The position numbers were made by a program, and so were the translations under genes. 55,117 nucleotides of DNA, taken from the IMG/VR virus record IMGVR_UViG_3300020047_002759; one strand, 5' to 3'. The stretch is from a virus. The notes beneath the pieces were generated by a model. That model ran no database searches. It saw only the letters and a program-made list of their open reading frames with translations, and was not told the DNA's origin. How positions within the stretch are numbered: the stretch's first letter is position 1; every line of letters starts with the position of its first letter. Below are positions 21,118 through 39,442 of the stretch, one piece after another.

Positions 21118-24100
21118 ATGGCTGATCCAAGCAAACTAATCCGAGGGGGCAAAGGGGCTAAGGCCGTGATGTCGCTGGCCGATCAGGTCAGAGCCGAGAT
21201 GGCCGCTGAGAAGGCGGCAACGCGTGCCCGAGGCTTTGGTGTCGCTGGCGAGGACTACGCTGACCCTAAGGTCAAGCCCACCATGAAATTCTCTGAGGCG
21301 CTTGGTAACACTGGCTCCGAGGGCAAGACCCTGAACCTTACTGAGGCTGACCGTTCACGTGTGCAAGGTGAAAACATGGGAGGCGTGGGCTTCTCAGGCT
21401 TACAGCTTTATTCAAAACCACATAGGGACGCCAACGTGTCGTGGGGCTTTGGCAGTGAGGAAATAGCTAAGCGCAAGTCTAAGAATGCCGATCCTGAGAA
21501 GAACGTATTCACAACCTACATTGGCTCACCTGACCAGCACAAGTCCAACAGCATCGTGGTCAGGGAGGCGCTCAAGAACGTGCAAGCGGCCAACAGCCAA
21601 AACCTGATTGACCCTGCGCAAATCAATTTGATAAATAAACGCATACGTGAGGCAAGGAGTAAGAGTGGCACGTTGCTGTTCCAGTCTGACTTTGACGTCA
21701 CCGACCCCCAAGCAATGAGCGCGGCAACCACCTTTGACCGCCGCACTGCTATCAGCAATGCATTGATGGGTATAGGGGTGCAGGGCCCCATGAAAAAGTT
21801 GGACTTTAAAAAAGCCAACCCCAACCTCGAATACAAAGACCCAGCGCAGATGGACAGCATATTGAGGCGTGAGACAGAGCCAATGCTGGAGGGCTTGCCT
21901 AACTACAGCGTGGGCCCGCGCCTGTTCACCTTGGACGGTGGCGTGGTCTACCGACCTGACCTCAACTTTGCTTTCCCTCATCAGACGACTGGCACCGACA
22001 TGGGCGTCATGTTTGAGATGCCAACAATCCGAGAAGCCGCACCTGACTTTATCAAGAAGAAGGGCTACAAACCCAAAGACGTAGTAAACGCACGCGCCAT
22101 GTCCATGGGTGCGCCGACTCAGTTTGTCAGTGAAGAATACTTGACCAACCTACAAAAGATTGGCAGGAAGAAGGGCGGCTTAGCCAGCATGGCCAAGGGC
22201 GGTGCGGCGCGTGGCATCAAGAAGCTCAAGGGTATTTACAACGAGGTAGAGACCAGCATGGGCAGGGGCAAGGGCGCTGACTTTGAGCAGACCGCATCGC
22301 CGCTAAACATCATCAAGGAGACTGGCGGTAATTGGTCACCCTCAGGTGAAATGGTTTACAAGTCTAATCTTGACCGTGAGTTAGAAAAACTTGAAAAGGG
22401 TAGATTTAATCCTAAGAGCAACAACATTAAGCTGATGCTTGAAGATGCTGTAAAAGCAGGCGACGCTCGTCAGGTTGAGGTCTTAACTACAAACTTACGC
22501 AGTGCCATTGGAAATGAAGCCGCCAACAAGTGGGTGCAATCCAACCTCAAGAACTACATCACCAAGCAGATGGCGACCAAGGACGACCCTGTTCGCAAGT
22601 TGGCTGAGGAAGGTATAACGGCGTTTCCTAAGAACGTAGATGAGTATGGTGACGTGGAGTTGCGCACTTATGGAAGCGCTAAGGCAAGGCAAAATCGTAA
22701 AGATACTGGTTATGTTCAAGCTGGAGTTTCTCAATCTCCCTTAGCAAAACATTACGAAACAATGACCGATGAGTCAATTTCTCCAAATATAGCCAAAGAA
22801 TATCAACGAATGCAAAATTTGCCGCCTATGCAAAGACCAGCGGGCGTGATTGATTCGCCTTGGTTACTCAAGCTAGACCCTGAGACGCCTATCTTTTCGT
22901 TAAGCCGAGACGCTGACTTTGACAAGTTGGGCTTTGGTCACATGATGGATGTCTTGCGTGAAGACGTTGCCGCTGGTCGCATTCGTCCTGAGAAGCTGAA
23001 TACGATAAGCATAGAGCAGGCGGTGCGTCGCACGCATGAGTATGACGAGACGCTTAAAGCAAATATGCTCAACGCAAGGATTGCAGAGCAAGCGAACGCA
23101 AATGTATTCAAAGAGTATCCTGAAGGGTACAAGTGGGTGCAGTTAGATCAGCCGGGTCAATTCAACCTTGAATCCGACATTATGGGTCACTCTGTGCGTG
23201 GGTATGAGCCACCCAAAGGTCACCCTGACTACACCGACATATCAGGCGACTCAGGACACGACACCTACGGTCAAGGTGGCTATGAGGCTATTAAGTCAGG
23301 CAGGGCTAAGGTTTATTCATTGCGTGACCCTAAAGGTCAATCGCACGTCACGGTTGAGGTTGGGCAAAATGGGTTGAGAGAACAATTTTTTAAGTTGCCA
23401 CAAAAAGAAAAAGAAAGAATAAATTCTACTTATAAGGGATGGGAATCAAAACTAGGACGTGAACCAACTCCTGAAGAGCATGATTCACAACTGTACAAAA
23501 TAATGTCCGAAATGGGTTATGCGCCTACTGAAAAAATTACCCAAATCAAAGGCAAGCAGAATGCCGCTCCCAATGAATCGTATCAACCGTATGTGCAAGA
23601 CTTTGTAAAGAGCGGAAATTGGTCTGACGTTGGCGACCTTGATAATACTGGGCTTGTAAGGATTTATGCTGAAAGTGAATTAGCGCAAACTCTTGGTAAA
23701 AAAGGCTTGCCTGTTCCAAAATATGCCAGTCAAGATGAAGTTTCTGAATTGTTGAAGCAAGCTGAAGTAGGCTCTTACAGAGATGCAAGTAAAGGCAAAA
23801 CTTGGATAAATGACGAGCATCCTGATTACAAAACAGACGCCCCTCCCGCAGAAGGCATGGCAAAGGGTGGATTGGCGTACATGGGCAAAGGCGGTGCCGC
23901 TAAGGGTGCCAAAAAAATAATGAGTCTTGCAGATCAGGTCAGGGCTGAAATGGCGGCAGAAAAGCAGTACGGCCAAATCAGTGGCATGGTGTCCAAGGTG
24001 GGCGAGGAGGGTCGCTCACCCATCATCCCAGTGCCCAACCGCTGGTTTCTGCAACCTGACAAGTTCCCCAACCAACAAAAGTTGATTGAGCGCGTCCTGC

Positions 24101-24660
24101 AACAGACTGGCATGAGGCGCGAGGACTTTCCCTCAGGCGCGTTCATCGACCCACGCACTGGCGATGTGCTTGACTCCCGCATCATGGACGACTTGGGCGT
24201 GGTCATCAACCCAGCAACCAACCGCCCCATGATGTCAGCCAAGGGTCAGTCAGGCCTTGAGGTGCTTGACCCCAAGACTGGCTCATACACCAAGAGCAAC
24301 TTGGTGCGCAAGGGCCTGTTCAAGCCCGAGGGCGGCGACCCAATACTCAACGACATGAGCTTTATTGCAACGATTGAGAAGGGTGACGTTGGTCACAAGT
24401 ACGGCTTGGCCACCGAGTACGCCAGCCCCACAGAATTGTTTAACACAAACACTGGTGCAAACCCAACGCTACGCCCAAGGAGTAGGGGCGACTTGTTTGG
24501 TGTGGGTGACGTGGTTGGCCAAGTCCGCATCGGCAAAAGCAATCCGCATGACGTGTACGAGAAGCTGTTTGTTGCGCCCAAGGGCTCTGATGTGCAAGGC
24601 AAAAAATTGAGCAAAGCCAAGGGTGGCTTAGCCCTGACATTACAAAGAAAGGCGGCTTAG
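21118..24660 (+). CDS. 1180-aa polyprotein-like multi-module virion protein (function unknown; the middle module may be PcfJ-like)
   Basis: Three unrelated modules are separated by 'RKKGGLASMAKGGAARGIKKLKG' (22165-22233) and 'MAKGGLAYMGKGGAAKGAKKI' (23857-23919). The leader 'MSLADQVRAEMAAEK' is present at 21169-21213 and at 23920-23964. The middle module contains 'GYKWVQLD...ESDIMGHSVRGY...KVYSLRDPKGQSHVTVEV...ITQIKGKQNAAP'. Confidence 0.8.
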   Translation: MADPSKLIRGGKGAKAVMSLADQVRAEMAAEKAATRARGFGVAGEDYADPKVKPTMKFSEALGNTGSEGKTLNLTEADRSRVQGENMGGVGFSGLQLYSKPHRDANVSWGFGSEEIAKRKSKNADPEKNVFTTYIGSPDQHKSNSIVVREALKNVQAANSQNLIDPAQINLINKRIREARSKSGTLLFQSDFDVTDPQAMSAATTFDRRTAISNALMGIGVQGPMKKLDFKKANPNLEYKDPAQMDSILRRETEPMLEGLPNYSVGPRLFTLDGGVVYRPDLNFAFPHQTTGTDMGVMFEMPTIREAAPDFIKKKGYKPKDVVNARAMSMGAPTQFVSEEYLTNLQKIGRKKGGLASMAKGGAARGIKKLKGIYNEVETSMGRGKGADFEQTASPLNIIKETGGNWSPSGEMVYKSNLDRELEKLEKGRFNPKSNNIKLMLEDAVKAGDARQVEVLTTNLRSAIGNEAANKWVQSNLKNYITKQMATKDDPVRKLAEEGITAFPKNVDEYGDVELRTYGSAKARQNRKDTGYVQAGVSQSPLAKHYETMTDESISPNIAKEYQRMQNLPPMQRPAGVIDSPWLLKLDPETPIFSLSRDADFDKLGFGHMMDVLREDVAAGRIRPEKLNTISIEQAVRRTHEYDETLKANMLNARIAEQANANVFKEYPEGYKWVQLDQPGQFNLESDIMGHSVRGYEPPKGHPDYTDISGDSGHDTYGQGGYEAIKSGRAKVYSLRDPKGQSHVTVEVGQNGLREQFFKLPQKEKERINSTYKGWESKLGREPTPEEHDSQLYKIMSEMGYAPTEKITQIKGKQNAAPNESYQPYVQDFVKSGNWSDVGDLDNTGLVRIYAESELAQTLGKKGLPVPKYASQDEVSELLKQAEVGSYRDASKGKTWINDEHPDYKTDAPPAEGMAKGGLAYMGKGGAAKGAKKIMSLADQVRAEMAAEKQYGQISGMVSKVGEEGRSPIIPVPNRWFLQPDKFPNQQKLIERVLQQTGMRREDFPSGAFIDPRTGDVLDSRIMDDLGVVINPATNRPMMSAKGQSGLEVLDPKTGSYTKSNLVRKGLFKPEGGDPILNDMSFIATIEKGDVGHKYGLATEYASPTELFNTNTGANPTLRPRSRGDLFGVGDVVGQVRIGKSNPHDVYEKLFVAPKGSDVQGKKLSKAKGGLALTLQRKAA

Positions 24661-24661
24661 T

Positions 24662-26419
24662 GTGAAACACCACGACTTATTGCACTCATGGGGTCACAGC
24701 AAGCTGGCTCGGCATATGGCAAGGGGCGGCATCGCTGAAGAGTTTGACGCAAACGCCCCCGACGAAGGCGATGAAGGCTCAGGCGCTGAGGCTCTTCGCC
24801 AAGAGTTGAATGAGATTACTAATAATTTTCCTAAGCCAACACCCAAGCCGTCAATGAGCATGGGTGGCAACGTGCGACGCTTTGATGGTGGTGGCTTTGT
24901 CGATCCTATGGGTGCCCCCTCCTCCGAGGTGGAGCCTGAGGATGCTGAGTTCATGCGCCGATTGGCCAAGAAGATTGCCCAAGCAACTGGCAAAGAGATC
25001 AAGCAACTTGCTACGCCTCGCGGGGCTAAGGACTTCACAGCCAACAGCATTGCCGCCACCTTGGCAGGGGGTACATCGGACATAGTGAACTTTGGCTTGC
25101 AAGGCGTTGATTATTTGCGAGAGCAAGCCGCAAAACAAAACAAGCGAGGCTACAAACGCGAATCGGTCATGGGTGGCGACATGGTTCCCCCAAAGGTTGA
25201 GCCATACGCAAGCGACAAGCCGTTCATGGGTTCCGATCAATTCCGCGATGCGTTTGAGCGGCAAGGGGTAACTTCAAAGGGAAGCCAAGAACAATTTCCA
25301 ATATTGGGCATGATTCCTGAGACGATTCTTAACCCAGTGGGGCCGCTGTCAGCAATAAAAGCCGCGCCAGCAATTTACAAGGGAGCCAAGACCGTGGTGG
25401 AAGAGGGTTTGCCCCGCGCCGCTGAGATGGGTGCCAACCGCGTGGTAAGCGACGTGCGCCGCCCATTTACGCCAGCAACATTTCCAACTGAGGCGACGGC
25501 CCCTGACCTTGGCCAAGGCACGTCCTATGGATTCAGGCAAGGCCTGAACGATAGGTTGTTGGCAAACCCCAAGCTTGGCACAGGCAAGGTCAAGGCAAGG
25601 GAAGGTCAAGGCACTTATGTAAACACAAAGGGAGAGCTTGAACTCAACCCTTTGCAAGCTATTGATGTGCCAAGGGCTGGCAATATTGGCGAGGGGCCAA
25701 AAGCCAACCAAAAATTGCGTCAACAGATTGCCCAAATGGGTGTTGATTTAAATCAAGAGGCTATGGCTGGCCACCGTTTTTTGCCCATGGCAACAAACAA
25801 CATTAAGGACGCATCAGCCATGTTGATCAAAACCAAAGAAGGGCTGAGCAAAGATCAAATTGCTGACCTTGCAAGGGCGCTTGGCGGCGATATGGTTGTG
25901 AGCCACAACCCCAAGCTAGGCGGTGTTGTAGTGTTCCCGTTTGGCCCTGTTACAAAAGGCAAAATACCAAGCGAGTTTCTTGCGGCACAAAGCGCGGCTA
26001 GCAAAGTGCTTGGCAAAGATGCAAAAATTCAATACGGTAAATCTGACTTTGAAAAAGACAGGCTGTTTAGGGACAAGTCACAATACAAAGACGCAGGCGC
26101 TACCTCAATGTCGGCAGAGCAACAGGCGTTGCGTGGCAAGTTACAGGGCGTGGAAAAGTTTATGTTCCCTGAGAGCGTCTCGGGCATCCCCGGCTCTGTG
26201 AAAGCCGCCCCAATGGGCGGTCTGCAACCTTGGTCTCGTGGTGCCGATTACCCAACTAGCGTGATTGGAATTGGGAACGGAGAAAAAGTAGAGTACCAGC
26301 CAGTAAATTTTTTAACTTCCGCAGAGGGGAAGCGTTATCCAAATTATCGGGAGGCTGAAAAAGAACGCGGACAGATGCTTGATGATTACCATAGAACCTT
26401 TCCCTCCAAAGCGCGTTAA
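24662..26419 (+). CDS. Large virion-associated protein, function unknown
   Basis: 585-aa ORF directly after the 1180-aa gene. The GTG start is uncertain (alternative ATG at 24716, 'MARGGIAEEF'). It contains 'MSMGGNVRRFDGGGFVDPMG'. Confidence 0.7.
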   Translation: MKHHDLLHSWGHSKLARHMARGGIAEEFDANAPDEGDEGSGAEALRQELNEITNNFPKPTPKPSMSMGGNVRRFDGGGFVDPMGAPSSEVEPEDAEFMRRLAKKIAQATGKEIKQLATPRGAKDFTANSIAATLAGGTSDIVNFGLQGVDYLREQAAKQNKRGYKRESVMGGDMVPPKVEPYASDKPFMGSDQFRDAFERQGVTSKGSQEQFPILGMIPETILNPVGPLSAIKAAPAIYKGAKTVVEEGLPRAAEMGANRVVSDVRRPFTPATFPTEATAPDLGQGTSYGFRQGLNDRLLANPKLGTGKVKAREGQGTYVNTKGELELNPLQAIDVPRAGNIGEGPKANQKLRQQIAQMGVDLNQEAMAGHRFLPMATNNIKDASAMLIKTKEGLSKDQIADLARALGGDMVVSHNPKLGGVVVFPFGPVTKGKIPSEFLAAQSAASKVLGKDAKIQYGKSDFEKDRLFRDKSQYKDAGATSMSAEQQALRGKLQGVEKFMFPESVSGIPGSVKAAPMGGLQPWSRGADYPTSVIGIGNGEKVEYQPVNFLTSAEGKRYPNYREAEKERGQMLDDYHRTFPSKAR

Positions 26420-26576: not shown

Positions 26577-26624
26577 TGAGCAAGCGTCTTATTTCAAGAC
26601 AAAGTGTAACACAGGATTAAACAT

Positions 26625-29099
26625 ATGGCTACCGAAATGCCCATTGAACAAGATTATGGACGCAACATTGATGGCGTACAAGCAACAGATGAGGACATGA
26701 TTGTTGACGTCCCTGATATGGGCGACTCAGATATTGAGGAAACTCCTGATGGTGGCGCAATTGTCACCATGCCTGATGACTTCAAGGGCCCGTCCGACGA
26801 CACTGACTTTTATGAAAACTTGGCTGAGACGGTCAACTTGATAGACCTTAGCAAGCTAACGACGCGCTACATCGACATGCTGGACAAGGACAAACAGGCG
26901 CGAAAGAAGAGGGACAAGCAGTACGAGGACGGGATCAAAAGGACGGGACTAGGGGATGAGGCCCCGGGCGGTGCTAACTTCATGGGCGCAAGCCGCGTTG
27001 TCCACCCCGTCATGGCCGAGGTCTGCGTTGACTTTGCCGCCAGCGCCATCAAAGAGTTGTTCCCACCCGATGGCCCAGTGCGCACCAACATCCTTGGTGA
27101 AGTAACCGATGAGAAGACCGAGGTTGCCGAGCGCAAGCGCGACTATATGAATTGGCAGTTAACCGAGCAGATCCCTGAGTTCAGGGATGAGACAGAGCAA
27201 CTGCTTACCCAGCTACCCCTTGGTGGCTCACAGTACATGAAGCTATGGTTTGATGAGAAGCTTCGCCGCCCCTGCGCTGAGTTCATCCCCATTGACAACA
27301 TCTTGTTGCCCTTTGCCGCCGCAAACTTTTACTCCGCACAACGCGTTTCTGAAATTCAAGACATTAGTGAGTGGGAGTTTGACAACCGCATCAAGGCTGG
27401 CCTGTACCGAGACATCAGCTACATCCGCGCCAGCGCGGAACCTGAGGAGAGCGGCCCACAAAAAGCCACAAACGAGATTGAGGGCCGTGAAAGCGATGAG
27501 AACGATGACGGTTTGCGCCGCGTTTTTCACATCTACACATGGCTTGAGCTTGAGGATGACGGCTTTTCCGAGGGTGAGATGGCTCCCTACATCCTGATGA
27601 TCGACGAGACCGACAACAAAGTGCTTGGTCTGTACCGAAATTGGGAGATGGGCGACAAAACCATGGACAAGTTGGACTGGATTGTCGAGTTCAAGTTCAT
27701 TCCATGGCGTGGCGCATACGCAATTGGCTTGCCGCACCTCATTGGCGGGCTGTCGGCGGCGCTTACAGGCGCTTTGCGGGCGCTGTTGGACACTGCACAC
27801 GTCAACAACTCGCTGACGATGTTGAAGCTCAAGGGTGGGCGCAACAGTGGACAGACGCAACAGCCCGAAATGACGCAGGTCACGGAGATTGAGGCCGCGC
27901 CGGGCATTGACGACATCCGCAAAATCGCCATGCCCATGCCATTCAACCCCCCAAGCCCCGTTTTGTTCGAGCTTTTGGGTTGGTTGGACAACGCCGCCAA
28001 GGGCGTCGTCAGCACCGCCGAGGAAAAGATTGCGGACATGAATGCCAACATGCCCGTGGGCACCACGCAAGCCCTGATTGAGCAAGGAGCCAAGGTATTT
28101 AGCTCCATCCACGCCCGTTTGCATGACTCACAGCGCCGCGTTCTTGGCGTTTTGGGCCGCATCAACCGCTGGTACTTGGATGATCAGAAAAAAGGCGACA
28201 TGGTTGCCGATTTGGCCGTCACCAAGGCTGATTTTGAACGCAACACCGACGTTGTGCCCGTATCTGACCCCCACATCTTCTCCGAAACCCAGCGTATGGC
28301 CCAAAGCCAAGCTGTTTTGGCGCTTATGGAGAAGTATCCCCAAGAGTTCAACTCAAAAGCCGTGCTTGGGCGCATCCTGAAGCAAATGAAGGTGCCAAAT
28401 ATCTCGGAGTTGATGCCAGCGGCGGCAAAACCCGAAGAATTGGATGCCGCCAACGAGAACGCGGCCATGGCATTGGGCAAGCCAGCCTTTGCGTACCCAC
28501 GCCAAGACCAGTTGGCGCACATTCAGACTCACTTGAACTTTGCGGTTGACCCAATCATGGGATCCAACCCAATGATTGCTCAGGTCTACATCCCGCAGGC
28601 CTTGGAGCACATCAAGCAACACATGATGCTGTGGTACACAAACCAAATGACCACCTACGTCACTGGTGGAACAGATATCACGCTTCAAAAGTACGAGAAG
28701 AACAAGCTGGCCAGCACGGTTGACAAGGCTGTGGCGCTTGCGTCTGATCACGTCAAGATTGATACGGCCAAGACCTTTGAAAAGGTTGTACCAATACTTC
28801 AACAGCTTGGCGAAATGATGGCTCAGTTTGCTCCAAAGCCACCAGTGGATCCCGAGTCCCAAGCCGTGTTGCAGGCGTCTATGGCAGAGACCCAGCGCCG
28901 CGCCGCACGCGACGGGGTGGAGATGGAACTCAAGAAGAAGGATCAAGAAATCGACGTGGCTATGAATGTCGAAAAACTCTTGACACAAGAACGCATGAAA
29001 ACCGCAGACCTCAGCGTAGAGGAAGCAAAGCTCAAGCGGGAGCAAGAGCGAACAGTGCTTGACCTAAATCAAGCGACACAACGTAACTTAGGAGAGTAA
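26625..29099 (+). CDS. Portal protein (putative)
   Basis: 824 aa at the head of the head-morphogenesis block. It has a very acidic N-terminus and a long C-terminal charged helix ('...ELKKKDQEIDVAMNVEKLLTQERMKTADLSVEEAKLKREQERTVLDL') reminiscent of P22-type portal barrels. The call rests on size, position and composition. Confidence 0.65.
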   Translation: MATEMPIEQDYGRNIDGVQATDEDMIVDVPDMGDSDIEETPDGGAIVTMPDDFKGPSDDTDFYENLAETVNLIDLSKLTTRYIDMLDKDKQARKKRDKQYEDGIKRTGLGDEAPGGANFMGASRVVHPVMAEVCVDFAASAIKELFPPDGPVRTNILGEVTDEKTEVAERKRDYMNWQLTEQIPEFRDETEQLLTQLPLGGSQYMKLWFDEKLRRPCAEFIPIDNILLPFAAANFYSAQRVSEIQDISEWEFDNRIKAGLYRDISYIRASAEPEESGPQKATNEIEGRESDENDDGLRRVFHIYTWLELEDDGFSEGEMAPYILMIDETDNKVLGLYRNWEMGDKTMDKLDWIVEFKFIPWRGAYAIGLPHLIGGLSAALTGALRALLDTAHVNNSLTMLKLKGGRNSGQTQQPEMTQVTEIEAAPGIDDIRKIAMPMPFNPPSPVLFELLGWLDNAAKGVVSTAEEKIADMNANMPVGTTQALIEQGAKVFSSIHARLHDSQRRVLGVLGRINRWYLDDQKKGDMVADLAVTKADFERNTDVVPVSDPHIFSETQRMAQSQAVLALMEKYPQEFNSKAVLGRILKQMKVPNISELMPAAAKPEELDAANENAAMALGKPAFAYPRQDQLAHIQTHLNFAVDPIMGSNPMIAQVYIPQALEHIKQHMMLWYTNQMTTYVTGGTDITLQKYEKNKLASTVDKAVALASDHVKIDTAKTFEKVVPILQQLGEMMAQFAPKPPVDPESQAVLQASMAETQRRAARDGVEMELKKKDQEIDVAMNVEKLLTQERMKTADLSVEEAKLKREQERTVLDLNQATQRNLGE

Positions 29100-29102: not shown

Positions 29103-29276
29103 ATGGCATCGTCAAACAAAACCATCCCCGGCACCCCCGAGGGCCCCACACCCCAGCGCTATCGCAACGCAACAGGCGAAGACGTGCTTCAGGGTCAAAC
29201 ATCTACAGCGTCCAACAGTGGAAAAAAGAGTGGTGGCCTGTCTGCCATGAAGTCGTCTAAAGGCAAGAGCAAGTAA
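29103..29276 (+). CDS. 57-aa basic protein with a 'KKSGGLSAMKSSKGKSK' tail (below the ORF-track cutoff)
   Basis: The ATG lies 4 nt after the portal stop. The product is MASSNKTIPGTPEGPTPQRYRNATGEDVLQGQTSTASNSGKKSGGLSAMKSSKGKSK. Its stop overlaps the next ATG. Confidence 0.5.
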   Translation: MASSNKTIPGTPEGPTPQRYRNATGEDVLQGQTSTASNSGKKSGGLSAMKSSKGKSK

Positions 29277-29458
29277 TGCGTTTAATCAATGACCTCATAA
29301 GCGCTGTAAAAGCGCGTCAGACAGAGATCAGGTACTCGTTGGCTGATGGCAACGCCATCAACTTTGAGTCCTATCAACGAATGGTGGGTCAATACTCAGG
29401 ATTGCAGGAGTCGTTAGACATCCTTGATAACTTAATGAAAGAAAAAGACGATGAGTGA
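29276..29458 (+). CDS. Hypothetical small protein
   Basis: 60-aa helical ORF, translationally coupled on both sides. Confidence 0.55.
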   Translation: MRLINDLISAVKARQTEIRYSLADGNAINFESYQRMVGQYSGLQESLDILDNLMKEKDDE

Positions 29459-29885
29459 AAGCACGGTAGCGGGTAATGCCGCTGATTTACGGGAAGCATT
29501 TCCTGTTGTAGACCCCGGAGCGCGTCCACTTGGTGCAAGAGTTTTAGTACAACTGCGCCGTACAAAGAAGACTGTGACTGCAAGCGGGATTGTTTTGGTT
29601 GAAGAAACTAGAGAAACCGAAAAGTGGCAAAACATGGTTGGCAAAGTCATCGAGCTTGGCCCCCTTGCCTTTCGCAAACGCGACAGCATGGAACCATGGG
29701 TAGAGGGCGTTTGGTGCCAAGTTGGCGACTACATCCGCGTCCCCAAATGGGGCGGTGATCGCTGGGAAGTGCCATTACCCAATGCCGCAAGAGACGAAGA
29801 CCCCATCCTGTTTATGGTGCTCAATGACCACGAAGTCATTGCCTCCATTACGGGCGACCCACTTGCAGTGAAGGCCTTTATATGA
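29451..29885 (+). CDS. GroES/Cpn10-like co-chaperonin
   Basis: 'ARPLGARVLVQLRRTKKTVTASGIVLVEETRE...MVGKVIELGP...QVGDYIRVPKWGG...VLNDHEVIASI' follows the GroES pattern (RPLGDRVLV...T.GGI.L...G.V.AVG...V..GD.V...D.DILA.I). Confidence 0.6.
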   Translation: MSESTVAGNAADLREAFPVVDPGARPLGARVLVQLRRTKKTVTASGIVLVEETRETEKWQNMVGKVIELGPLAFRKRDSMEPWVEGVWCQVGDYIRVPKWGGDRWEVPLPNAARDEDPILFMVLNDHEVIASITGDPLAVKAFI

Positions 29886-30865
29886 ACACAGAACCAAAAT
29901 CCCCCGAGCAAGAGGTAATGGTGATTCAAGAGGCGTCAGACGGCGGCGCAGTCGTTGATCTACCCTCAAGCATCCCATCCCCTGATGCTGGCCAAGGCGG
30001 TGACTCAGACGAAGCCGACGCCGCCGCACAACGCGCAGAGATACAGGCCACTGGCTCTGTTGACCCTGACGCGGAAGAGGCCCGCCAAGCCAAGCGCGAC
30101 AAGCGCCGCATGCGCAAGGACTACCACAAGCAAGTGTCTGTGGAAAAGGACATCAAGCTCCAACAGCTTGAGCGCCAAAACCAAAACCTGCTTGAGCGCC
30201 TGTCAGTTGTAGAGCGCAAAACACTTGGATCAGAGTTGGCCCGCCTTGACAAGCGGATTGAGGACGAGCAAAACCGAGTTGTCTTTGCCAAGCAGAAAAT
30301 CAAGGAAGCCGCCGAGACTGGCAACGGTGACTTGATGGTCAGCGCACAGGACATGTTAATTGAGTCAAGCAGGAACCACGAGGCGCTTGCAAACTTGAAG
30401 AAGCGCTCAATCGCACCCCAGCGCCAGCAAACCATTCAAAAACCTGACCCCACGCTTCAGCGGCATGCAAACGCTTGGATGTCCAAAAACTCTTGGTACG
30501 ACCCAACGGGTAAAGATCCTGATTCACGCCGTGCGTTAAACGAAGACCAAATCTTGGCCGAGGAGGGGTACGACCCCAAAACAGCCGAATATTGGGAAGA
30601 GCTTGACAAACGCTTGCACAAGGTAGTTCCGCACCGTTATACTGACGACATGGACGAGGTTCCAGTAAGAACTCAAAGACCAAGAAATGTTGTTACAGGC
30701 TCAGGTCGTGAAAGCACTACTCAGAGTGGCGGTAGAAATACTCTCACTCTTTCACCCGAAAAGGTGAAAGCCATGAAAGAGGCGGGTATGTGGGACAACC
30801 CTGAAAAAAGAGCGCGAATGATCAAACGCTACGCTCAAGAAGCACGCAACAACAACGAAGGTTAA
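29882..30865 (+). CDS. Scaffolding-like protein (putative)
   Basis: 327 aa between portal and capsid genes. It has an acidic N-terminus and long charged helical segments ('KDIKLQQLERQNQNLLERLSVVERKTLGSELARLDKRIEDEQNRVVFAKQKIKEAAE'). Confidence 0.5.
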   Translation: MNTEPKSPEQEVMVIQEASDGGAVVDLPSSIPSPDAGQGGDSDEADAAAQRAEIQATGSVDPDAEEARQAKRDKRRMRKDYHKQVSVEKDIKLQQLERQNQNLLERLSVVERKTLGSELARLDKRIEDEQNRVVFAKQKIKEAAETGNGDLMVSAQDMLIESSRNHEALANLKKRSIAPQRQQTIQKPDPTLQRHANAWMSKNSWYDPTGKDPDSRRALNEDQILAEEGYDPKTAEYWEELDKRLHKVVPHRYTDDMDEVPVRTQRPRNVVTGSGRESTTQSGGRNTLTLSPEKVKAMKEAGMWDNPEKRARMIKRYAQEARNNNEG

Positions 30866-30877: not shown

Positions 30878-31417
30878 ATGGATAAACGTCTAAAGAAAAA
30901 TCTATCTGCTGGTGGACGCGAAAATCGCGCGAGTCTTGATCCCGATCGAGAGGCACCTGAGGATAAGTTCGCATCATCCCACGAACGTAAGAAAATGTGG
31001 ACGGATGAGTGGACACAAAGCGCACTGCCCAACGTCCCTGAATTACAGGGATGGCACCTTTGCTGGTTATCAACAACCAACGGGTACGACAGCATTGATA
31101 AGCGTATGCGACTCGGATATACACCAGTGAAAGCTGAAGATATAAACGGGTTTGAAAATTGGCGCGTAAAGGCTGGCGAACATGTAGGTTTCATCGCGTG
31201 CAACGAGATGCTCTTGTTCAAAATTCCTATGGAACAGTATCAAGAAATCATGGCGCACTTTCACCACGATGCTCCTCTTGATGAGGCGAACAAAATTCGC
31301 TTACAGGCCGAGGCGCAACAAGGTCGAGACTCTTCAGGCCGCAGGCTTGGACAGGTTGAAGGCGAGGGTTTGGACAGTATTGACACCCCGATTCCTGCTC
31401 CGCATTTTGCTGGGTAG
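30878..31417 (+). CDS. Head-module protein, function unknown
   Basis: 179-aa ORF containing 'SALPNVPELQGWHLCWLSTTNGYDSIDKRMRLGYTPVKAEDI'. No family was recognised. Confidence 0.65.
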   Translation: MDKRLKKNLSAGGRENRASLDPDREAPEDKFASSHERKKMWTDEWTQSALPNVPELQGWHLCWLSTTNGYDSIDKRMRLGYTPVKAEDINGFENWRVKAGEHVGFIACNEMLLFKIPMEQYQEIMAHFHHDAPLDEANKIRLQAEAQQGRDSSGRRLGQVEGEGLDSIDTPIPAPHFAG

Positions 31418-31445: not shown

Positions 31446-32027
31446 ATGTCTACAGTAAACGCTCCATTCGGCTTGCGTCCCGCGTTTCATCCCTCAGGTT
31501 TGGATCGCGCACAGGCGTTAGCTAATGGAATTGCCTCAGGTTTGGCCTCAAACATTTTGAAGGGCCAAGCTATCAAGTATTCAACCGCCACTGGTGTAAT
31601 TACTCCCGTAACTGGTACCGAAGCTTTCTCAGGTGCTTTTGCTGGTTGTGAATTCACCGATACCACAGGTCGTCGTCGCGTATCAAACATTTGGCCCACA
31701 GGCACTACATACCAAACAGGTTCATGTATTGCGTATTTCTACAACGACCAAAACATCGTTTATGAAATTCAAGCCAATGGCGTGCTTGCGCAGACTTCAC
31801 TTGGTGACGAAGCCAACTTGACGACTGCCGATTTGGCCGCTGGATCAACCGTAACTGGCTTATCCCAATCCACTTTATCAACTACTTTGGTTGGCACAAC
31901 TGTTCAAGGACAAATGCGCATCGTGGATCTCGCCCCGTTAGTTGACAATGCGTGGGGCGATGCCTTTACCGTTGTTCGTGCGGTTGTTGCAAGATCACAG
32001 TTCTTCGGTTCTGTTGTCGCAATCTAA
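31446..32027 (+). CDS. Capsid-associated protein (possible decoration/cement protein)
   Basis: 193-aa Gly/Thr/Ala-rich beta-type ORF immediately upstream of the capsid gene (lambda D-E-like order). The function is inferred from position only. Confidence 0.4.
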   Translation: MSTVNAPFGLRPAFHPSGLDRAQALANGIASGLASNILKGQAIKYSTATGVITPVTGTEAFSGAFAGCEFTDTTGRRRVSNIWPTGTTYQTGSCIAYFYNDQNIVYEIQANGVLAQTSLGDEANLTTADLAAGSTVTGLSQSTLSTTLVGTTVQGQMRIVDLAPLVDNAWGDAFTVVRAVVARSQFFGSVVAI

Positions 32028-32043
32028 TTAGGGAGATAAAAAA

Positions 32044-32958
32044 ATGGCCGCTCCAATGCGCAGTACGGACTTTAGAAGCATCGTTGAACCAATTCTCAAC
32101 GAGTGCTTCGATGGAGTCTATGATCAACGTACCGACGAATGGTCACGAGTTTTTCGTGAGCAAGAAGGTATTCCCCGCAACTACCACGAAGAACCCGTTC
32201 TTTACGGTTTTGGTGCCGCTCCTCAGTTGCCTGACGGTTCTCCTGTCAGCTACCAACAAGGTGGCGTGCTGTTTCTGAAACGCTATGTGTACAACGTGTA
32301 TGGCCTCGCCTTCGCATTGACCAAAGTGTTGGTGGAAGACGGCGACCACATCCGCATCGGTAACGTGTATGCACGCCACTTGGCGCAATCCCTGATCGAA
32401 ACCAAAGAGACACTGTCTGCGAACGTGCTTAACCGCGCATTCAACTCAGCGTATCAAGGTGGCGACGGTGTTGCTCTGAACAGCGCATCGCATCCCATCG
32501 TGAACGGTACAACCAGCAACTTGTTGACCACCGCCGCAAACTTGTCACAGACATCGCTTGAGCAGATGTTGATTCAAGTGCGTCAGGCGATTGACAACAA
32601 CGGCAAGAAGATTCGTTTGGTGCCCCGCCAATTGGTGGTCGCCCCCGGCAACATCTTCCAAGCCGAAGTGCTGTTGAAATCTGTTCTGCGTACTGGTACA
32701 GCAAACAACGACATCAACCCTGTCAAAGCAATCGGCCTCTTGGACGAAGGCGCGGCAGTGCTGTCACGTTTGACCTCCAGCACCGCATGGTGGGTTCAGA
32801 CCGACGCGCCTGAAGGCATGAAGCTTTTGATGCGCCGTAAGCTGGAAAAAACCATGGAAGGCGACTTCGAGACTGACTCTATGCGCTACAAGGCGACAGA
32901 GCGTTACGACGTTGGCTTCACTGACTGGCGTGCCATGTACGGCACACCCGGCGTCTAA
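32044..32958 (+). CDS. Major capsid protein (HK97-fold type, putative)
   Basis: 304 aa containing 'GGDGVALNSASHPIV...IRLVPRQLVVAPGNIFQAEVLLKS...NNDINPVK...STAWWVQTD...ATERYDVGFTDWRAMYG', which is typical of phage MCPs. It is followed by a strong terminator/attenuator. Confidence 0.7.
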   Translation: MAAPMRSTDFRSIVEPILNECFDGVYDQRTDEWSRVFREQEGIPRNYHEEPVLYGFGAAPQLPDGSPVSYQQGGVLFLKRYVYNVYGLAFALTKVLVEDGDHIRIGNVYARHLAQSLIETKETLSANVLNRAFNSAYQGGDGVALNSASHPIVNGTTSNLLTTAANLSQTSLEQMLIQVRQAIDNNGKKIRLVPRQLVVAPGNIFQAEVLLKSVLRTGTANNDINPVKAIGLLDEGAAVLSRLTSSTAWWVQTDAPEGMKLLMRRKLEKTMEGDFETDSMRYKATERYDVGFTDWRAMYGTPGV

Positions 32959-32974
32959 CAGTAAACGCCAAGCA

Positions 32975-33005: not shown

Positions 33006-33039
33006 AATATCTTGTCAAGCTTTTCAAGGAGAAGACAAA

Positions 33040-34017: not shown

Positions 34018-34029
34018 GGGGAGGCTGAA

Positions 34030-35973
34030 ATGGCTCAATTTAAACCAATGGTCAAGATGACCACCAACGAGCCTTCAGTTATGCTGAAGCTCAAAAAGGG
34101 TGGCAAGGTAGCAAAAGCTGACGCGGCTGAATCCAAGTTTAAGAAGATGGCTGGTGGCGGCGCAATGTCAATGTTGGGAATGACTCCAGCGTTTGTTGGC
34201 CGCCCTGCGGTTAATGCGCTTGTCAAGAGCCCCGGCAAGCCCTCAATGTCTGCACGCAAAAAGGCAATGGCGGCCAAGAAGCCCGCCAAGAAGCCTCGTA
34301 TGCCCAAAGAAATGTCAATGATGCCTCCCATGATGCCCCCCATGAAAAAGGGTGGCTCTGCCGACAAGTCTCAAGACAAAGCCATGGTCAAAAAGGCTTT
34401 CAAACAGCACGACATGCAAGAGCACAAAGGCGGCAAAGGCACCAAGCTGTCCCTTAAAAAGGGCGGTCAAACCTACGCTGACGGCGGTTCAGTAAGCCAC
34501 AGTCCTATGTCTACCCCTGCAAATGCAAAGCCACCTACCGCTAATCGTGGTGTTGGTGAGTATGTGCAGACAGCCATGCGCACGGCAAAGAACAACCCCA
34601 AAGGTTACGCCTATGGCGGTTCTGTCAAAACAGTTGTGATGTCGACTGACAAGAAAAGGGGCAACAACGGTTTTGCAACTGGTGGTGTTGCCATGAGTAA
34701 CGCTGGTGGCTACAAAAAAGGCGGCAAACCCAAAAAAATGGCGATGGGTGGTATTGGTCAACGACCCCTAACAGCGGAAGAACTGAATCGGAAAGATCCG
34801 AATCCCGGAGCTATACGTACTAATCCATTAATGGAAAAAGTGAAGTTACAGATAGCGGGTCTTAATGACCCCGACCGTGGTGGCGGCAATAGACCTAGAC
34901 CTCGCCTTCCACTTATTAATACCGACCCTGATGGCGGCAATAGACCTAAACCTCGCACCACCAAACCTCTACTTATTAATGATGATAATGACCCCGATCG
35001 TCGTGGCGGCAATAGACCTAGACCACAGACAATTGACCTGTCTTCCATGCACAATGACCCCGATCGTCGTGGCGGCAATAAACCCCGCACACCACTGCCA
35101 CAAGCTATTGATATGCCAAAGCCTAATATGCCAAACCGTACACCACGGCCACAGGCTATTGATATGCCAAGGCCCAATATGCCCATGAAAAAAGGCGGCA
35201 AGGCCATGATGATGGGCGGTTACGCAACTGGTGGCGTTCCTATGTCCAATGCTGGAGGCTACAAAAAGGGGGGCAAAACCTCAAAAAAAGCTTACGCGAC
35301 GGGGGGAACTGTTAACACAGGCAAGCCCGTCGCGATGCAAGAGGGCAACAAGCCTATTCCAGCACCCAAGCGCCAGCAAAACTTCAGCGGCACCTACAAA
35401 AATGGCGGTGAAGTAGAAAAGATGGCTATGGGTGGACGAATGGGTCAAAAGCCTGCCCAAACAATTCGCACTGCGCCCATCGGTAGCTCACAAGCTACAA
35501 GGGATTTCTTTGCCAGCAAGGGCAAGCGCCCTAGCTACAAAGATGGCGGCAAGGTGCCCAAGATGCTTGGTGGCGGCATATTGACCCGAGCGGTAGCGGC
35601 GGGTAAAAACCCTGCTCGTGCGCCAACGGGTGGCGGCGTTATTGCTAGAGCCACGCAAGCAATGCAAAAAATGCCCAAGCAATCCCCTTCAACAGGAAAC
35701 GGCATTATTGCTAGAGCCATGCAAACCATGGGCCCTAGCAACCGAACTATGAGTCCTAAAGTAATTGCTGAGACGCAAATGCTATTGGAAAGGCAAGCCG
35801 CCGACAGGAAACGACGCGGATTAAAAGATGGCGGCGGCGTAGAAAACAAAAGCTTGGTGAAAATTAACAAAGCCCAAAATGCTCCTGCGGTAAAAGCAAG
35901 CAAGGCTGACACTAATTTAAAGTATCCTGAGACCATGAACAGTCCTCAAAAGACGCCAAAACTGAAGTGTTAA
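34030..35973 (+). CDS. Hyper-basic Lys/Arg/Pro/Gly/Met-rich repeat protein (putative internal core / DNA-associated protein)
   Basis: 647 aa with more than 20 GG dipeptides in the contexts 'LKKGGK', 'MKKGGS', 'YKKGGKPKKMAMGG', 'YKNGGEVEKMAMGG' and 'YKDGGKVPKMLGGG'. It also carries tandem 'DPDR(R)GGN(R/K)PRP' repeats. Confidence 0.75.
   Translation: MAQFKPMVKMTTNEPSVMLKLKKGGKVAKADAAESKFKKMAGGGAMSMLGMTPAFVGRPAVNALVKSPGKPSMSARKKAMAAKKPAKKPRMPKEMSMMPPMMPPMKKGGSADKSQDKAMVKKAFKQHDMQEHKGGKGTKLSLKKGGQTYADGGSVSHSPMSTPANAKPPTANRGVGEYVQTAMRTAKNNPKGYAYGGSVKTVVMSTDKKRGNNGFATGGVAMSNAGGYKKGGKPKKMAMGGIGQRPLTAEELNRKDPNPGAIRTNPLMEKVKLQIAGLNDPDRGGGNRPRPRLPLINTDPDGGNRPKPRTTKPLLINDDNDPDRRGGNRPRPQTIDLSSMHNDPDRRGGNKPRTPLPQAIDMPKPNMPNRTPRPQAIDMPRPNMPMKKGGKAMMMGGYATGGVPMSNAGGYKKGGKTSKKAYATGGTVNTGKPVAMQEGNKPIPAPKRQQNFSGTYKNGGEVEKMAMGGRMGQKPAQTIRTAPIGSSQATRDFFASKGKRPSYKDGGKVPKMLGGGILTRAVAAGKNPARAPTGGGVIARATQAMQKMPKQSPSTGNGIIARAMQTMGPSNRTMSPKVIAETQMLLERQAADRKRRGLKDGGGVENKSLVKINKAQNAPAVKASKADTNLKYPETMNSPQKTPKLKC
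34864..35190 (+). repeat. Imperfect in-frame tandem repeats: 4x 'N(D/T)DPD(RR)GGN(R/K)P(R/K)P...' then 2x 'PQAIDMP(K/R)PNMP'
   Basis: 'aatgaccccgatcgtcgtggcggcaatagacctagacc' and its variants recur, and 'caagctattgatatgccaaagcctaatatgcc' occurs twice. Confidence 0.8.
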
Positions 35974-35978
35974 AACCT

Positions 35979-36004
35979 GCAAGGGCTTCGGCCCTTGCTT
36001 TTTT
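35979..36004 (+). terminator. Rho-independent terminator/attenuator
   Basis: GCAAGGGC-TTCG-GCCCTTGC is followed by T6. Confidence 0.8.
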
Positions 36005-36015
36005 AGAGGTGAATT

Positions 36016-38649: not shown

Positions 38650-38658
38650 GGAAAAATC

Positions 38659-39054
38659 ATGGCCAAAAGGGGACTTTATGCAAACATTAATGCAAAACGC
38701 GAAAGAATTGCTGATGGATCAGGCGAGAAAATGCGCAAAGTTGGTAGCAAAGGTGCTCCAACTCGCAAAGACTTTGTTGAGTCAGCTAAGACAGCCAAAA
38801 TGAAAGAAGGCGGCCCAAGCCTTGCTGTTGGTCGAGGTGAGAAACTTTCAACCAAGCAAGGTGCGGGGCTTACCCAAAAAGGGCGCGACAAATACAATCG
38901 TGAAACTGGATCCAATCTGAAGGCCCCACAACCCAAGGGTGGCTCAAGAAAAGATTCTTTTTGCGCACGCATGAGTGGTGTTGTTGAGCACGCAAAAGGC
39001 GACGCGCCACGCGCTAAAGCATCGTTAAAGCGCTGGAACTGTCCTAACTGGTAA
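38659..39054 (+). CDS. Small basic virion protein
   Basis: 131 aa containing 'GLYANINAKRERIADGSGEKMRKVGSKGAPT' and 'KMKEGGPSLAVG'. The C-terminus is 'KRWNCPNW'. Confidence 0.65.
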   Translation: MAKRGLYANINAKRERIADGSGEKMRKVGSKGAPTRKDFVESAKTAKMKEGGPSLAVGRGEKLSTKQGAGLTQKGRDKYNRETGSNLKAPQPKGGSRKDSFCARMSGVVEHAKGDAPRAKASLKRWNCPNW

Positions 39055-39064
39055 AGGAAAAATC

Positions 39065-39442
39065 ATGAGTACACCAAAACCAAATGCCACGCCCGAAGAT
39101 ATGGCCGAACTTTACAAACTTAATGAAAAGTTGTATGGAAGCAAGACAAAGCCATTGCCACAAACGCCAATAAAGCCATCGCCGCCTCGTACAACGCTAC
39201 CTAAGACAATAAAGCCATCGCCACCTTATCCATCGCCACCTTATCCATCGCCGCCTAGGCCATCGCCGCCTAGGCCACCTCGGTCAACGCCAATCCCACC
39301 GAAATTAAATCCACCACCACCAAGGCAACGGGGCGGTGAGCCATTAAGACCACCTCAGGTTGGAATGAAAAAAGGCGGGAGCATTAACTTGGCTAATTGC
39401 AAAATAACCACTGCAAAGAAAAATTCCAACTCACGGTTTTAA
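39065..39442 (+). CDS. Small proline-rich virion protein with a C-terminal MKKGG motif
   Basis: 125 aa containing 'KPSPPYPSPPYPSPPRPSPPRPPRSTPIPPKLNPPPP' followed by 'VGMKKGGSINL'. Confidence 0.6.
   Translation: MSTPKPNATPEDMAELYKLNEKLYGSKTKPLPQTPIKPSPPRTTLPKTIKPSPPYPSPPYPSPPRPSPPRPPRSTPIPPKLNPPPPRQRGGEPLRPPQVGMKKGGSINLANCKITTAKKNSNSRF

Follow-up and report, generated by a model that had tools for sequence, protein, structure and literature searches.

A hydrophobic-x-x-Gly-Gly motif recurs at the leaders, junctions and tails of predicted cargo and ejection proteins in a freshwater podovirus clade

A short peptide motif, in which a hydrophobic residue stands three positions before a glycine pair, was found to recur in the late proteins of an uncultured ~55 kb freshwater podovirus (IMG/VR record IMGVR_UViG_3300020047_002759; the whole stretch of 55,117 nucleotides analysed is referred to below as the window). 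The motif is a specific signature selected at the protein level and conserved across hundreds of related phages, and it is located at leaders, inter-module junctions and tails of a polyvalent cargo protein, a Lys/Gly/Met-rich protein, a tape-measure-like ejection protein and a few small proteins. The reading favoured here, to which a probability of about 0.4 is attached, is that it acts as a joint or docking (or hinge) element for proteins expelled through the tail. An original prediction made from the letters of the window had offered two explanations for the recurrence, maturation cleavage sites or encapsidation/portal-docking tags, and both are weighed below.

Results

Enrichment and register of the motif

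The 66 open reading frames (ORFs) of the window that were taken as genes were examined for the pattern [LMYF].[KRDNE]GG, the count against composition-preserving shuffles being a check that the original prediction had proposed. The pattern was seen 24 times, as opposed to 5.1 ± 2.2 times in 2000 per-protein shuffles (maximum 15, z 8.6), and the narrower form [MY].[KR]GG was seen 12 times against 0.8 (z 12.6). Shuffling was also confined to blocks of 20 residues, a procedure that preserves local composition and with it Gly/Lys richness. Under these conditions 16 copies were observed against 1.5 expected in the protein encoded at 34030–35973 (P<0.0003), six against 1.3 in that at 409–3381 (P 0.002) and four against 1.1 in that at 21118–24660 (P 0.02). 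The enrichment is specific to a single register: Met, Tyr or Phe is found at offset −3 from GG 39 times in the window, compared with 13–16 times at −4, −2 and −1 (16 at −2), and 373 times at −3 among 38 homologues of the 34030–35973 protein, compared with 34–67 times at neighbouring offsets (38 at −2). Since this register-specific enrichment persists in the local shuffles and offset controls, a compositional artefact is ruled out. A preference for protein termini was also considered and discarded, the frequency there being no higher than uniform placement predicts.

The core of the motif can be written Φ-[A/K]-x-G-G-x-[V/A/L], where Φ is Met, Tyr, Phe or Leu. At junctions it is usually doubled, as GG-x-Φ-H-M-x-x-GG, and 143 unique doubled junctions give the consensus [K/M/Y]-A-[K/H/R/Q]-G-G-[L/A/E]-[V/A/I]-H-M-[A/Q/G]-[K/G]-G-G (Met 88%, His 55%), equivalent to two 8-residue units Φ-A-x-G-G-x-Φ-x. 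Conservation on the N-terminal side of GG exceeds that after it. Compared with randomly drawn segments from these proteins, the 18 residues that follow are significantly, though modestly, enriched in basic and amphipathic character.

The glycine pairs are encoded by a mixture of GGC, GGT, GGA and GGG codons, mostly GGC and GGT, with GGAGG being rare. Synonymous codon variation with retention of the peptide indicates that selection operates at the protein level. The pattern could conceivably have been the shadow of a DNA-level signal, namely internal Shine-Dalgarno sequences with start codons, or a recombination or packaging site, since AAR-AAR-GGN-GGN could spell AAGGAGG 7–9 nt before a conserved ATG, and Met is indeed present at that position in 88% of doubled junctions. 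However, the Gly codons are GGC or GGT in almost all copies, Shine-Dalgarno-like cores are found at 8% of linker GGs versus 6% of other GGs, and the peptide persists although its nucleotides change. The codon mixture and core frequency exclude an internal ribosome-binding site or nucleotide repeat, and a DNA-level signal in general is scarcely credible.

These data sustain the view that the motif is a specific, selected signature as opposed to low complexity, given its fixed register, its synonymous codons and its retention in orthologues of 34–57% identity. The peptides originally listed are all present at the coordinates given for them, including eight sites in 34030–35973 and EKGGM in RusA, and the motif is confined to virion and cargo proteins, as had been suggested. 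Conversely, NKAEGGS in 3381–4358 is not an instance, since it has no hydrophobic residue in register, and homologues 61–83% identical to that protein are devoid of M/Y/F/L-x-x-GG. The hydrophobic residue had also been placed at −4, whereas it occupies P5 if the chain is cut after GG.

The motif at the junctions of a polyvalent cargo protein

Two ORFs between the terminase and portal genes encode a polyvalent cargo protein, the relevant features of which are as follows.

21118–24660, + strand: polyvalent cargo protein part 1, 1180 amino acids (aa), with modules A (residues ~49–349), B (~398–903, PcfJ-like) and C (~985–1165) and motif-bearing linkers between them
21136–21150, + strand: LIRGG, the N-terminal leader copy
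21175–21228, + strand: helix MSLADQVRAEMAAEK after LIRGG, which recurs after the B–C junction
22165–22203, + strand: RKKGGLASMAKGG, doubled motif at the A–B junction; ends of BLAST high-scoring segment pairs (HSPs; 119 homologues) cluster at residues 340–360; predicted local distance difference test (pLDDT) score 28–42
23857–23895, + strand: MAKGGLAYMGKGG, doubled motif at the B–C junction; HSP ends (119 homologues) cluster at residues 910–960; pLDDT <50 over 904–984
24613–24630, + strand: KAKGGL, C-terminal half-junction; homologues extend to ...GGLAHMGKGG and a further module
24662–26419, + strand: polyvalent cargo protein part 2, module D, with leader motifs MARGG (24716–24730), MSMGG (24854–24868) and FDGGG (24881–24895)

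Homologues of 21118–24660 numbered 235, many of them with PF14284 (PcfJ), PF18760 (ART-PolyVal) or PF02195 (ParB) domains. The window protein has no Pfam match at E≤0.01; across 99% of its length it shares 60% identity with P0002, in which PcfJ occupies residues 604–729. Assignment to the polyvalent proteins described from phages and conjugative elements (Iyer, Burroughs, Anand, de Souza and Aravind 2017; PMC5512222) follows from the several domains and variable architecture of the homologues, which combine ART-PolyVal, PcfJ, ParB_N, LPD23 and GDSL lipase domains in varying order, and from the late-gene position between terminase and portal, which is shared by the window and relatives as distant as DSL-LC04; packaging is predicted.

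In an AlphaFold2 (AF2) model of 21118–24660, built with 58 sequences, residues 49–349 and 398–903 form confident modules, and the low-pLDDT linkers 1–48, 350–397 and 904–984 hold the motifs, with a helix after the motif in each low-confidence segment. Judged from this model, the motif linkers are probably disordered. An internal duplication is visible in the sequence at residues 10–32 and 925–949. Fold matches of the model in BFVD were to PcfJ-like phage proteins only (E 1e-36), and a Foldseek search against the PDB returned nothing significant (best E 0.5).

Domain borders and the ends of homology blocks both fall at motif sites. The Pfam domains of seven homologues all lie between motif sites, with none spanning one. 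Module A ends '...YLTxLQKxGYKKGG' and several modules begin 'MAKGGAAKGAKKVMSLADQ' or 'MAKGG-AAKGAKKVMSLADQVRAEM', an element that also opens the window protein, so that each half of the doubled motif travels with its own module. Three homologues (P0002, P0014 and P0007) read 'KLSKA[KHQ]GGLAHMGKGG...' at the segment corresponding to KAKGGL. Orthologues of module D retain 'KH-M-[KA]-x-GG' ~20 residues from the N terminus, and at other loci module D is fused with other modules in one ORF. The two ORFs of the window are immediately adjacent but differ in frame, with a stop at 24660 and a GTG at 24662, where a single ORF is present elsewhere; natural fission, a frameshift or an assembly error could be responsible. 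As carriers of the motif, 21118–24660 and 24662–26419 are two pieces of one cargo locus and not independent proteins.

The motif in ejection and tape-measure proteins

A second carrier is encoded near the left end of the window.

409–3381, + strand: tape-measure-like ejection protein, 990 aa; PHROG tape-measure families match residues 905–973, in its C-terminal part
2122–2190, + strand: motif cluster YKRGG..MKKGGLPHFYTGGG, with YKRGG at 2122 and MKKGG at 2149
2929–2943, + strand: MADGG
3049–3084, + strand: QNGGLQMRRGGL motif cluster
3154–3219, + strand: conserved segment GKGDGQSDDIPAMLADGEYV, residues 916–937 of the ejection protein, just downstream of the last GG motifs and with MRRGG upstream; homologue of a tape-measure segment

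The protein contains a triple copy of the motif, and all three of its motif clusters are kept in orthologues of 34–57% identity. A four-sequence profile of the GKGDGQSDDIPAMLADGEYV segment, compared with PDB sequences, matched the tape-measure proteins gp16 of mycobacteriophage Douge (8zdo, E 4e-17, two copies) and gp46 of JBD30 (8rk3, E 6e-7). Among the approximately six tape-measure and ejection proteins inspected, the ΦAxGG core lies directly before GPGTGxSDxIPAxLSxGE[YF]V, as YANGG/YAGGG in Douge, FASGG in JBD30, VKKGG in EvePickles, FANGG..LAKGG in DSL-LC04 and MARGG in Caulobacter phage RW, and the same combination of core and segment is present in 409–3381. The authors of the JBD30 study predict a 'hook' in the region of this segment, in an AF2-based proposal for anchoring (PMC11445458). 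The doubled form GG-x-x-H-M-A-K-G-G was also encountered in a siphovirus tape-measure protein (L092 and L123; PHROG E 3e-96, Pfam PhageMin_Tail), which has an exact 'GGIAHMAKGG' followed by a basic stretch, together with 'FQVGGAMIDPAGPGTG' and a C-terminal 'FAKGGVMAAEVGEKGREIVVAP'. The ΦAxGG core is therefore old and common to the tape-measure proteins of unrelated phages. Since siphovirus tape-measure proteins are never in the capsid, neither a head-maturation protease site nor a pure capsid-loading tag can serve as a general explanation.

An M23 Gly-Gly endopeptidase in the L092 tape-measure protein was considered and rejected, Pfam giving PhageMin_Tail only; string searches of the literature for the tape-measure motifs returned nothing relevant. 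The 409–3381 gene also contains a 129-nt tandem repeat at 1571–1933 (2.8 copies, 'EDSNAGGYEA.D..GNLW.V..DGS'), and residues ~180–320, a strongly acidic stretch rich in Tyr, contain the unit 'NTIPNNTPAEA.TIDESMFD' three times.

The 34030 family and small carriers

The remaining carriers are listed below.

34030–35973, + strand: Lys/Gly/Met-rich protein, 647 aa
29223–29249, + strand: KKSGGLSAM, basic C-terminal tail of the 57-aa protein at 29103–29276; KKNGGLSTM or KKSMGGLAAL in five relatives
38659–39054, + strand: DUF6321 protein (Pfam DUF6321 at residues 69–126)
38800–38814, + strand: MKEGG, at the junction of the N-terminal 'GLYxNIxAKRxRI' and DUF6321 modules of 38659–39054
39365–39379, + strand: MKKGG, single copy near the C terminus of the Pro-rich 125-aa protein at 39065–39442 (P 0.01 in that protein)

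The 34030–35973 protein has 16 [MYF]xxGG copies in addition to Leu variants, and a conserved N terminus that reads MxxFKPMVKMxTxEP...LKLKKGG. Its family comprises >5300 homologues, none of which is annotated or has a Pfam domain. The 647-aa length compares with ~390 aa in thousands of relatives, owing to an insert at ~34800–35190; the unit 'DPDR(R)GGNRPRP' occurs four times in the insert, alongside a 51-nt tandem repeat (35085–35183) that encodes Pro-rich 'PRPQAIDMP.PNMP'.

The composition of this protein (12.8% Lys, 12.7% Gly) and its four DPDRGGNRPRP units raise the idea that the motif is a DNA-contacting, charge-neutralising unit on the packaged DNA, similar to histone tails (GKGGAKR-like). 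The excess of positive charge after the motif is consistent with such a role, as is the fact that all carriers would adjoin DNA in the capsid or tail lumen. However, Lys is not required, as evidenced by FAMGG, MADGG and FAEGG in DSL-LC04 and by the many polyvalent linkers with Asp or Glu at the variable position, and what stays invariant is not charge but GG with its hydrophobic residue. A DNA-contact function is accordingly judged quite improbable.

In the 38659 family the motif again marks a boundary between modules. The two modules also match as separate pieces at L003 and L041, and at L005 an in-frame stop occurs a few residues past the MKEGG-type GG, followed by a new ORF. A stand-alone homologue begins 'MANGG...' where the fused form reads '...KMAKGGGLYENI', and Pro follows GG in about half of the junctions of this family. 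The 50-residue N-terminal module ('GLYxNIxAKRxRIxxGSGExMRKxGSxGAPT', phrog_16028) is found fused to DUF6321, split from it, or inserted in a 34030 homologue (L006), behaving as a mobile mini-module. The protein at 39065–39442 had no homologues among the fetched loci.

Such arrangements evoke a neutral linker or evolutionary scar, formed from the fused ends of once-separate cargo genes (a C-terminal 'ΦKKGG' and an N-terminal 'MAxGG') and carried along with modules during recombination. The co-variation of doubled-motif halves with their own modules, seen at the end of module A and in the 'MAKGGAAKGAKKVMSLADQ' starts, fits this idea, as do the MANGG start of the stand-alone 38659 homologue and the nature of the locus as a hotspot of module shuffling. 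Against it, the residues are kept despite synonymous codon change and in 34–57% identical orthologues with diverged surroundings, and the same register is evident in unrelated carriers, namely the 34030 family, the ejection protein and tape-measure proteins. Moreover, ordinary flexible linkers do not conserve Met, Tyr and His, yet Met is at 88% in fused internal positions. A neutral scar is considered improbable.

Distribution among related phages

DNA-level comparison with 50,697 phage records revealed no close match to the window. Relatives of its portal protein (26625–29099) were present in >590 IMG/VR contigs, with identities of 60% to the uncultured spring-water phage MW202545, 47% to Caulobacter phages RW, KcrB, RLK and GB2A, and 29–35% to roseophages CRP-901 and CRP-902, pelagiphages HTVC023P and HTVC027P, and phage DSL-LC04. 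ORFs were called in 80 related loci and motif counts compared with shuffles. Enrichment was limited to the polyvalent proteins (263 versus 43 expected), the 34030 family (322 versus 22, 38 relatives) and the 38659 family (20 versus 3). The terminase, portal, Cpn10 and other structural proteins of the 80 loci showed no enrichment, save for one fixed YQQGG within the capsid protein fold; the scaffold-like protein has a single 'MAxGG' site in part of the clade.

Both terminase and portal genes were present in 73 loci, in which the cargo between them totals ~400–2300 residues. In this set no module is universal, A being found in 36 loci and D in 37, and 11 loci are without any module of the window. 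Of the 73, 70 nonetheless keep at least one [MYF]xxGG, so that the motif is retained despite module exchange. Expansion of the motif tracks the cargo genes. Both are present in MW202545 and in two genomes borne by metagenome-assembled genomes (MAGs; portal 59–60% identical), whereas Caulobacter phage RW and a related MAG contig (46–47%) are without the polyvalent gene and the 34030 homologue, and in RW only two motif copies are left, MARGG and a C-terminal YMDGG, both in the ejection-protein homologue. HTVC023P has none of the motif clusters; among the titles and abstracts listed for this phage, none concerned virion proteomics. In DSL-LC04 (32%), a PcfJ-like protein is encoded at the same position, and three 'SLS..FAxGGxV' units fall within its first 60 residues, in an acidic context, indicating that Lys is not essential. 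The presence of the motif in related phages, which had been named as a check, is thus borne out, expansion accompanying the cargo genes.

Searching IMG/VR for GG-x-x-H-M-A-K-G-G as a DNA pattern gave 41 exact matches, of which 40 were newly fetched, the 41st being L002 of this clade. Homologues of window genes adjoin 37 of the 40, and L092 and L123 account for two of the remaining three. An exhaustive search of 1.84 billion representatives with a profile of the doubled junction returned 181 clusters at E≤1e-3, nearly all of them proteins of ~1000–2500 residues with two to six matched stretches, and 125 of the 133 listed representatives that had yet to be fetched share modules with the polyvalent proteins of the clade. 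The doubled junction is therefore the hallmark of one large freshwater phage cargo-protein family. Among the matches outside it are P0479, with five tandem 'HMQKGGTP' units, and P0416, 2128 aa of degenerate 'RLELIQYADGGPLNMPRR' repeats that resembles a translated DNA repeat. A match in Atu_ph07 was dismissed as chance. Short-peptide tblastn against cultured phages is too insensitive to be informative.

T7 internal proteins showed no enrichment of the motif, which is accordingly not a general podovirus rule; gp13 of T7 ends '...ITKGG' and gp6.7 ends '...SAFGGKK' (L162/L163).

The distribution also bears on a proposed resemblance to the mobile loop of co-chaperonins (K-x-GG-hydrophobic-hydrophobic), by which the motif would recruit host GroEL for the folding of the large cargo proteins, in concert with the Cpn10-like protein of the phage (29451–29885). 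GroES and Hsp10 loops contain sequences such as 'KSAGGIVL' and 'TKGGIML', to which 'KKGGLAS', 'AKGGLAY' and 'ARGGIAE' bear a likeness, and a Cpn10 gene does lie in the head module. However, the gene is equally present in relatives without motif expansion (Caulobacter RW, HTVC023P), residues after GG in the 34030 family are mostly Lys, Ser and Thr, and the motif is found in tape-measure proteins of phages without a known GroES gene. Mimicry of this kind is very improbable.

Search for a protease

If the motif were a processing site, a novel phage protease or a host protease would cut at or near GG, freeing the modules of the polyvalent protein and chopping the 34030 protein into peptides, in the manner of adenovirus core proteins and T4 internal peptides. 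Several observations are in keeping with this idea. Virtually all module junctions have the motif, within flexible linkers, and in some proteins it stands ~20 residues into the chain, as in a propeptide; conservation is stronger before GG than after it; and natural fission of genes is seen at junctions. Processing of polyvalent proteins has been predicted, where it is assigned to zincin-like or assemblin-like peptidase domains (PMC5512222), and the cleaved tape-measure proteins of lambda and T5, the latter with reported host involvement, provide a precedent (PMC10038345).

Of the 66 ORFs, 49 were scanned with Pfam and PHROGs, among them every ORF above ~110 aa; the other 17 are small (51–110 aa). 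The sole peptidase domain in the 49 scanned ORFs is that of the M15_4 endolysin, with no clan-CE, C39 or papain-like domain, in agreement with the original statement that no head protease is recognisable. No prohead protease of the HK97 gp4 or T4 gp21 type is encoded between the portal and capsid genes, where Cpn10-like and scaffold-like proteins and two proteins without a protease match are found. The ORFs that had been put forward as protease candidates (30878–31417, 24662–26419 and the modules of 21118–24660) gave no protease match: profiles of 29882–30865, 30878–31417, 31446–32027, module A and module D found no match among PDB sequences, 24662–26419 had neither a Pfam nor a PDB profile match, and 30878–31417 had no Pfam match even at E≤10 (25 family members). 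The AF2 model of the last was unusable (pLDDT 47).

The 30878–31417 product is a highly conserved 179-aa head-module protein ('GWHLCWLSTT..YDSIDKR..IACNEM..HFHHDAP'). Its 'WHLCW...YDS...C' arrangement was considered as a clan-CE protease and rejected, since the spacing is wrong, the Gln and Cys-Gly features are lacking and the Cys is unconserved outside the clade. Cys108 is kept in three motif-bearing lineages and is Val or Ile in three lineages without motif expansion, but the contrast is effectively one substitution on one branch and carries little weight.

Nor does the register conform to known enzymes. Adenain sites are (M/I/L)XGG↓X, and those of PLpro and deubiquitinases LXGG, with the hydrophobic residue at P4. 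The likeness originally drawn to adenain, pS273R, Ulp and C39 sites fails, since these need a hydrophobic residue two positions before GG and here it is three before; Met, Tyr and Phe are enriched at −3, not −2. With the residue at P5 (for a cut after GG), there is no fit to the adenain, PLpro or deubiquitinase register. C39 leader peptides, which are single N-terminal stretches of 15–30 residues ending in GG with a hydrophobic residue at −4, are not indicated either, the motifs being mostly internal and repeated, with no C39 or ABC transporter gene in the window. Moreover, roughly half of the junctions in the 38659 family would place Pro at P1′, and a tandem copy only 8 residues away would be superfluous for cutting. 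A shared enzyme residing in the capsid is ruled out by the occurrence of the motif in tape-measure proteins of the tail lumen. Of the maturation cleavage originally suggested, the head-protease form is therefore not general, and cleavage by another protease, perhaps of the host, is regarded as rather unlikely, although it is the strongest competitor of the joint or docking reading.

Genome context

The gene map was compiled from the 66 ORFs with Pfam and PHROGs.

409–8039: ejection/internal proteins, the last with an SLT domain; the genome order wraps around the window ends
19694–21115: large terminase
21118–24660 and 24662–26419, + strand: polyvalent cargo ORFs, large and without annotation by Pfam/PHROGs
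26625–29099: portal
29451–29885: Cpn10-like protein
29882–30865: coiled-coil, scaffold-like protein
30878–31417 and 31446–32027: two conserved proteins to which Pfam/PHROGs give no function
32044–32958: HK97/Mu gpT-type capsid protein, 304 aa
33040–34017: fibre-like protein
39446–40519 (weak match) and 47812–48447 (strong match, E 1e-24): SU10-type adaptor-like proteins
40808–45530: fibres
45571–47797: lysis genes, including the M15_4 endolysin at 47456–47797

The Cpn10/GroES-like gene keeps its position inside the head module in Caulobacter RW, DSL-LC04, MW202545 and HTVC023P. The 39446–40519 protein has an F5/8 type C (discoidin) domain besides its weak adaptor match. An early 147-aa protein (13759–14202) contains a bacterial RNA polymerase alpha C-terminal domain (Pfam RNA_pol_A_CTD, E 8e-19) and could act on host transcription as a decoy or a modulator. 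Candidate nozzle genes occupy 48447–51682. The right end of the window has tandem repeats (54733–55031) with units of 51, 33 and 30 nt, inside a minus-strand ORF (54648–55088).

Relatives in GTDB genomes are MAG contigs, mostly in freshwater Betaproteobacteria bins, and several are ~55–57 kb, the size of a complete phage genome. Near-identical capsid genes occur across MAGs of Burkholderiaceae, Akkermansia, Nitrospira, Opitutae and Chthonomonas (L133–L159); given the very different phyla, these are mis-binned phage contigs. Since the relatives in GTDB genomes are solely such mis-binned contigs, they provide no prophage or isolate of the clade, of which the searches likewise yielded no proteome; the betaproteobacterial majority among the contigs hints at the host.

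Discussion

What unites the carriers of the motif is a long, partly disordered chain that is kept in the particle and then expelled via the tail, whereas residence in the capsid is not common to them; for this reason a joint or docking element is favoured. The motif would mark the probably disordered leaders, inter-module junctions and tails of proteins that are stored in the particle and expelled at infection: the hypervariable polyvalent effector protein, the very basic Gly/Lys/Met-rich protein, the tape-measure-like ejection protein and a few small proteins. Each unit may form a GG turn between short hydrophobic strands, often in multivalent arrays, and the units would attach to a shared partner within the portal-adaptor-nozzle conduit, or to sister chains. 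Independently folding cargo modules could in this way behave as beads on a string that are held, unfolded and threaded in order, and the motif would not be a head-protease cleavage site. Binding, partner and threading role are what we infer from these common properties. Multivalent arrangements, such as the three copies that open the PcfJ-like protein of DSL-LC04 (residues 1–60) and the triple copy in 409–3381, favour a joint, and Pro after GG in the 38659 family counts for one that is not cleaved. The docking tag of the original prediction accordingly survives in modified form, but not as a pure capsid-loading tag, which the tape-measure proteins show not to be general.

A number of points weigh against the joint or docking reading. 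AF2 shows the motif segments as low-confidence coil. A motif at every multi-domain junction has the classic look of a polyprotein site, and one docking tag per chain would seem sufficient. The basic stretch downstream is a small effect (hydrophobic moment 0.275 versus 0.240, net charge +0.54 versus +0.09), T7 internal proteins lack enrichment, and the link to the tape-measure 'hook' rests on published AF2-based speculation, the structure of the segment being a predicted one that, as far as the papers indicate, the deposited structures do not resolve.

A bolder and doubtful extension is that the joint, together with the basic stretch that follows it, constitutes a portable delivery signal by which any protein module could be stored in the particle and travel down the tail into the host, or, in a variant, that a novel Gly-Gly-directed protease cuts the junctions. 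A delivery signal, if real, would explain how effector modules swap freely in the clade so long as the junction stays. If either a delivery signal or a new protease site is confirmed, the loading and release of cargo by phages could be predicted from sequence and engineered.

To our knowledge, the selection, storage and delivery of protein cargo by tailed phages are poorly understood outside T4, P1, P22 and T7. Such cargo includes anti-defence effectors, ADP-ribosyltransferases and nucleases. A simple, sequence-searchable motif that flags cargo leaders and junctions in a very abundant group of uncultured freshwater phages, and that is better conserved than the cargo modules themselves, would be of practical value if it is a docking or delivery signal or a processing site: it would permit injected proteins to be predicted in metagenomes, effector modules of unknown function to be delimited and protein-delivering phages to be designed. 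It is also a concrete handle on the predicted processing of polyvalent proteins. The searched literature contained no earlier description of the motif.

Comparison with known systems

The 21118–26419 locus resembles the polyvalent proteins of PMC5512222 in being large, near virion genes, composed of shuffled modules and presumably packaged and injected. It departs from the processing described there in having no zincin- or assemblin-like domain, according to Pfam scans of the window ORFs, the seven homologues and 120 listed homologues; the constant feature is instead the junction motif, and the main text of that paper contains neither 'glycine' nor 'linker'.

With adenain and LXGG sites the motif shares a hydrophobic residue upstream of Gly-Gly and recurrence in internal, DNA-proximal virion proteins, but it differs in the placement of that residue at P5 rather than P4, in tandem copies at 8-residue spacing and in its occurrence in tail tape-measure proteins. 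In T4, internal proteins and Alt bear a single N-terminal capsid targeting sequence that is cut by the prohead protease gp21 (LxE). The system described here is similar in that a short peptide is common to unrelated packaged or injected proteins, including ADP-ribosyltransferase cargo; it is dissimilar in that copies of the motif are repeated and lie both inside the chains and at their ends, in that no prohead protease was found and in that the 304-aa capsid protein is without a delta domain.

The Pfam KGG repeat, which we take to be PF10685 (stress-induced bacterial acidophilic repeat), likewise features a 'KGG' tripeptide in Gly/Lys-rich, probably disordered proteins. Unlike PF10685, however, neither 34030–35973 nor the other carriers have a Pfam match (E≤0.01) to it, Lys is dispensable and the motif is defined by its hydrophobic residue at −3. 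A further relationship is with Douge gp16 and JBD30 gp46, to which the C-terminal part of 409–3381 is homologous, with the ΦAxGG core right before the shared segment; whereas tape-measure proteins have one to three copies at fixed places, the present clade has dozens of copies and the doubled junction.

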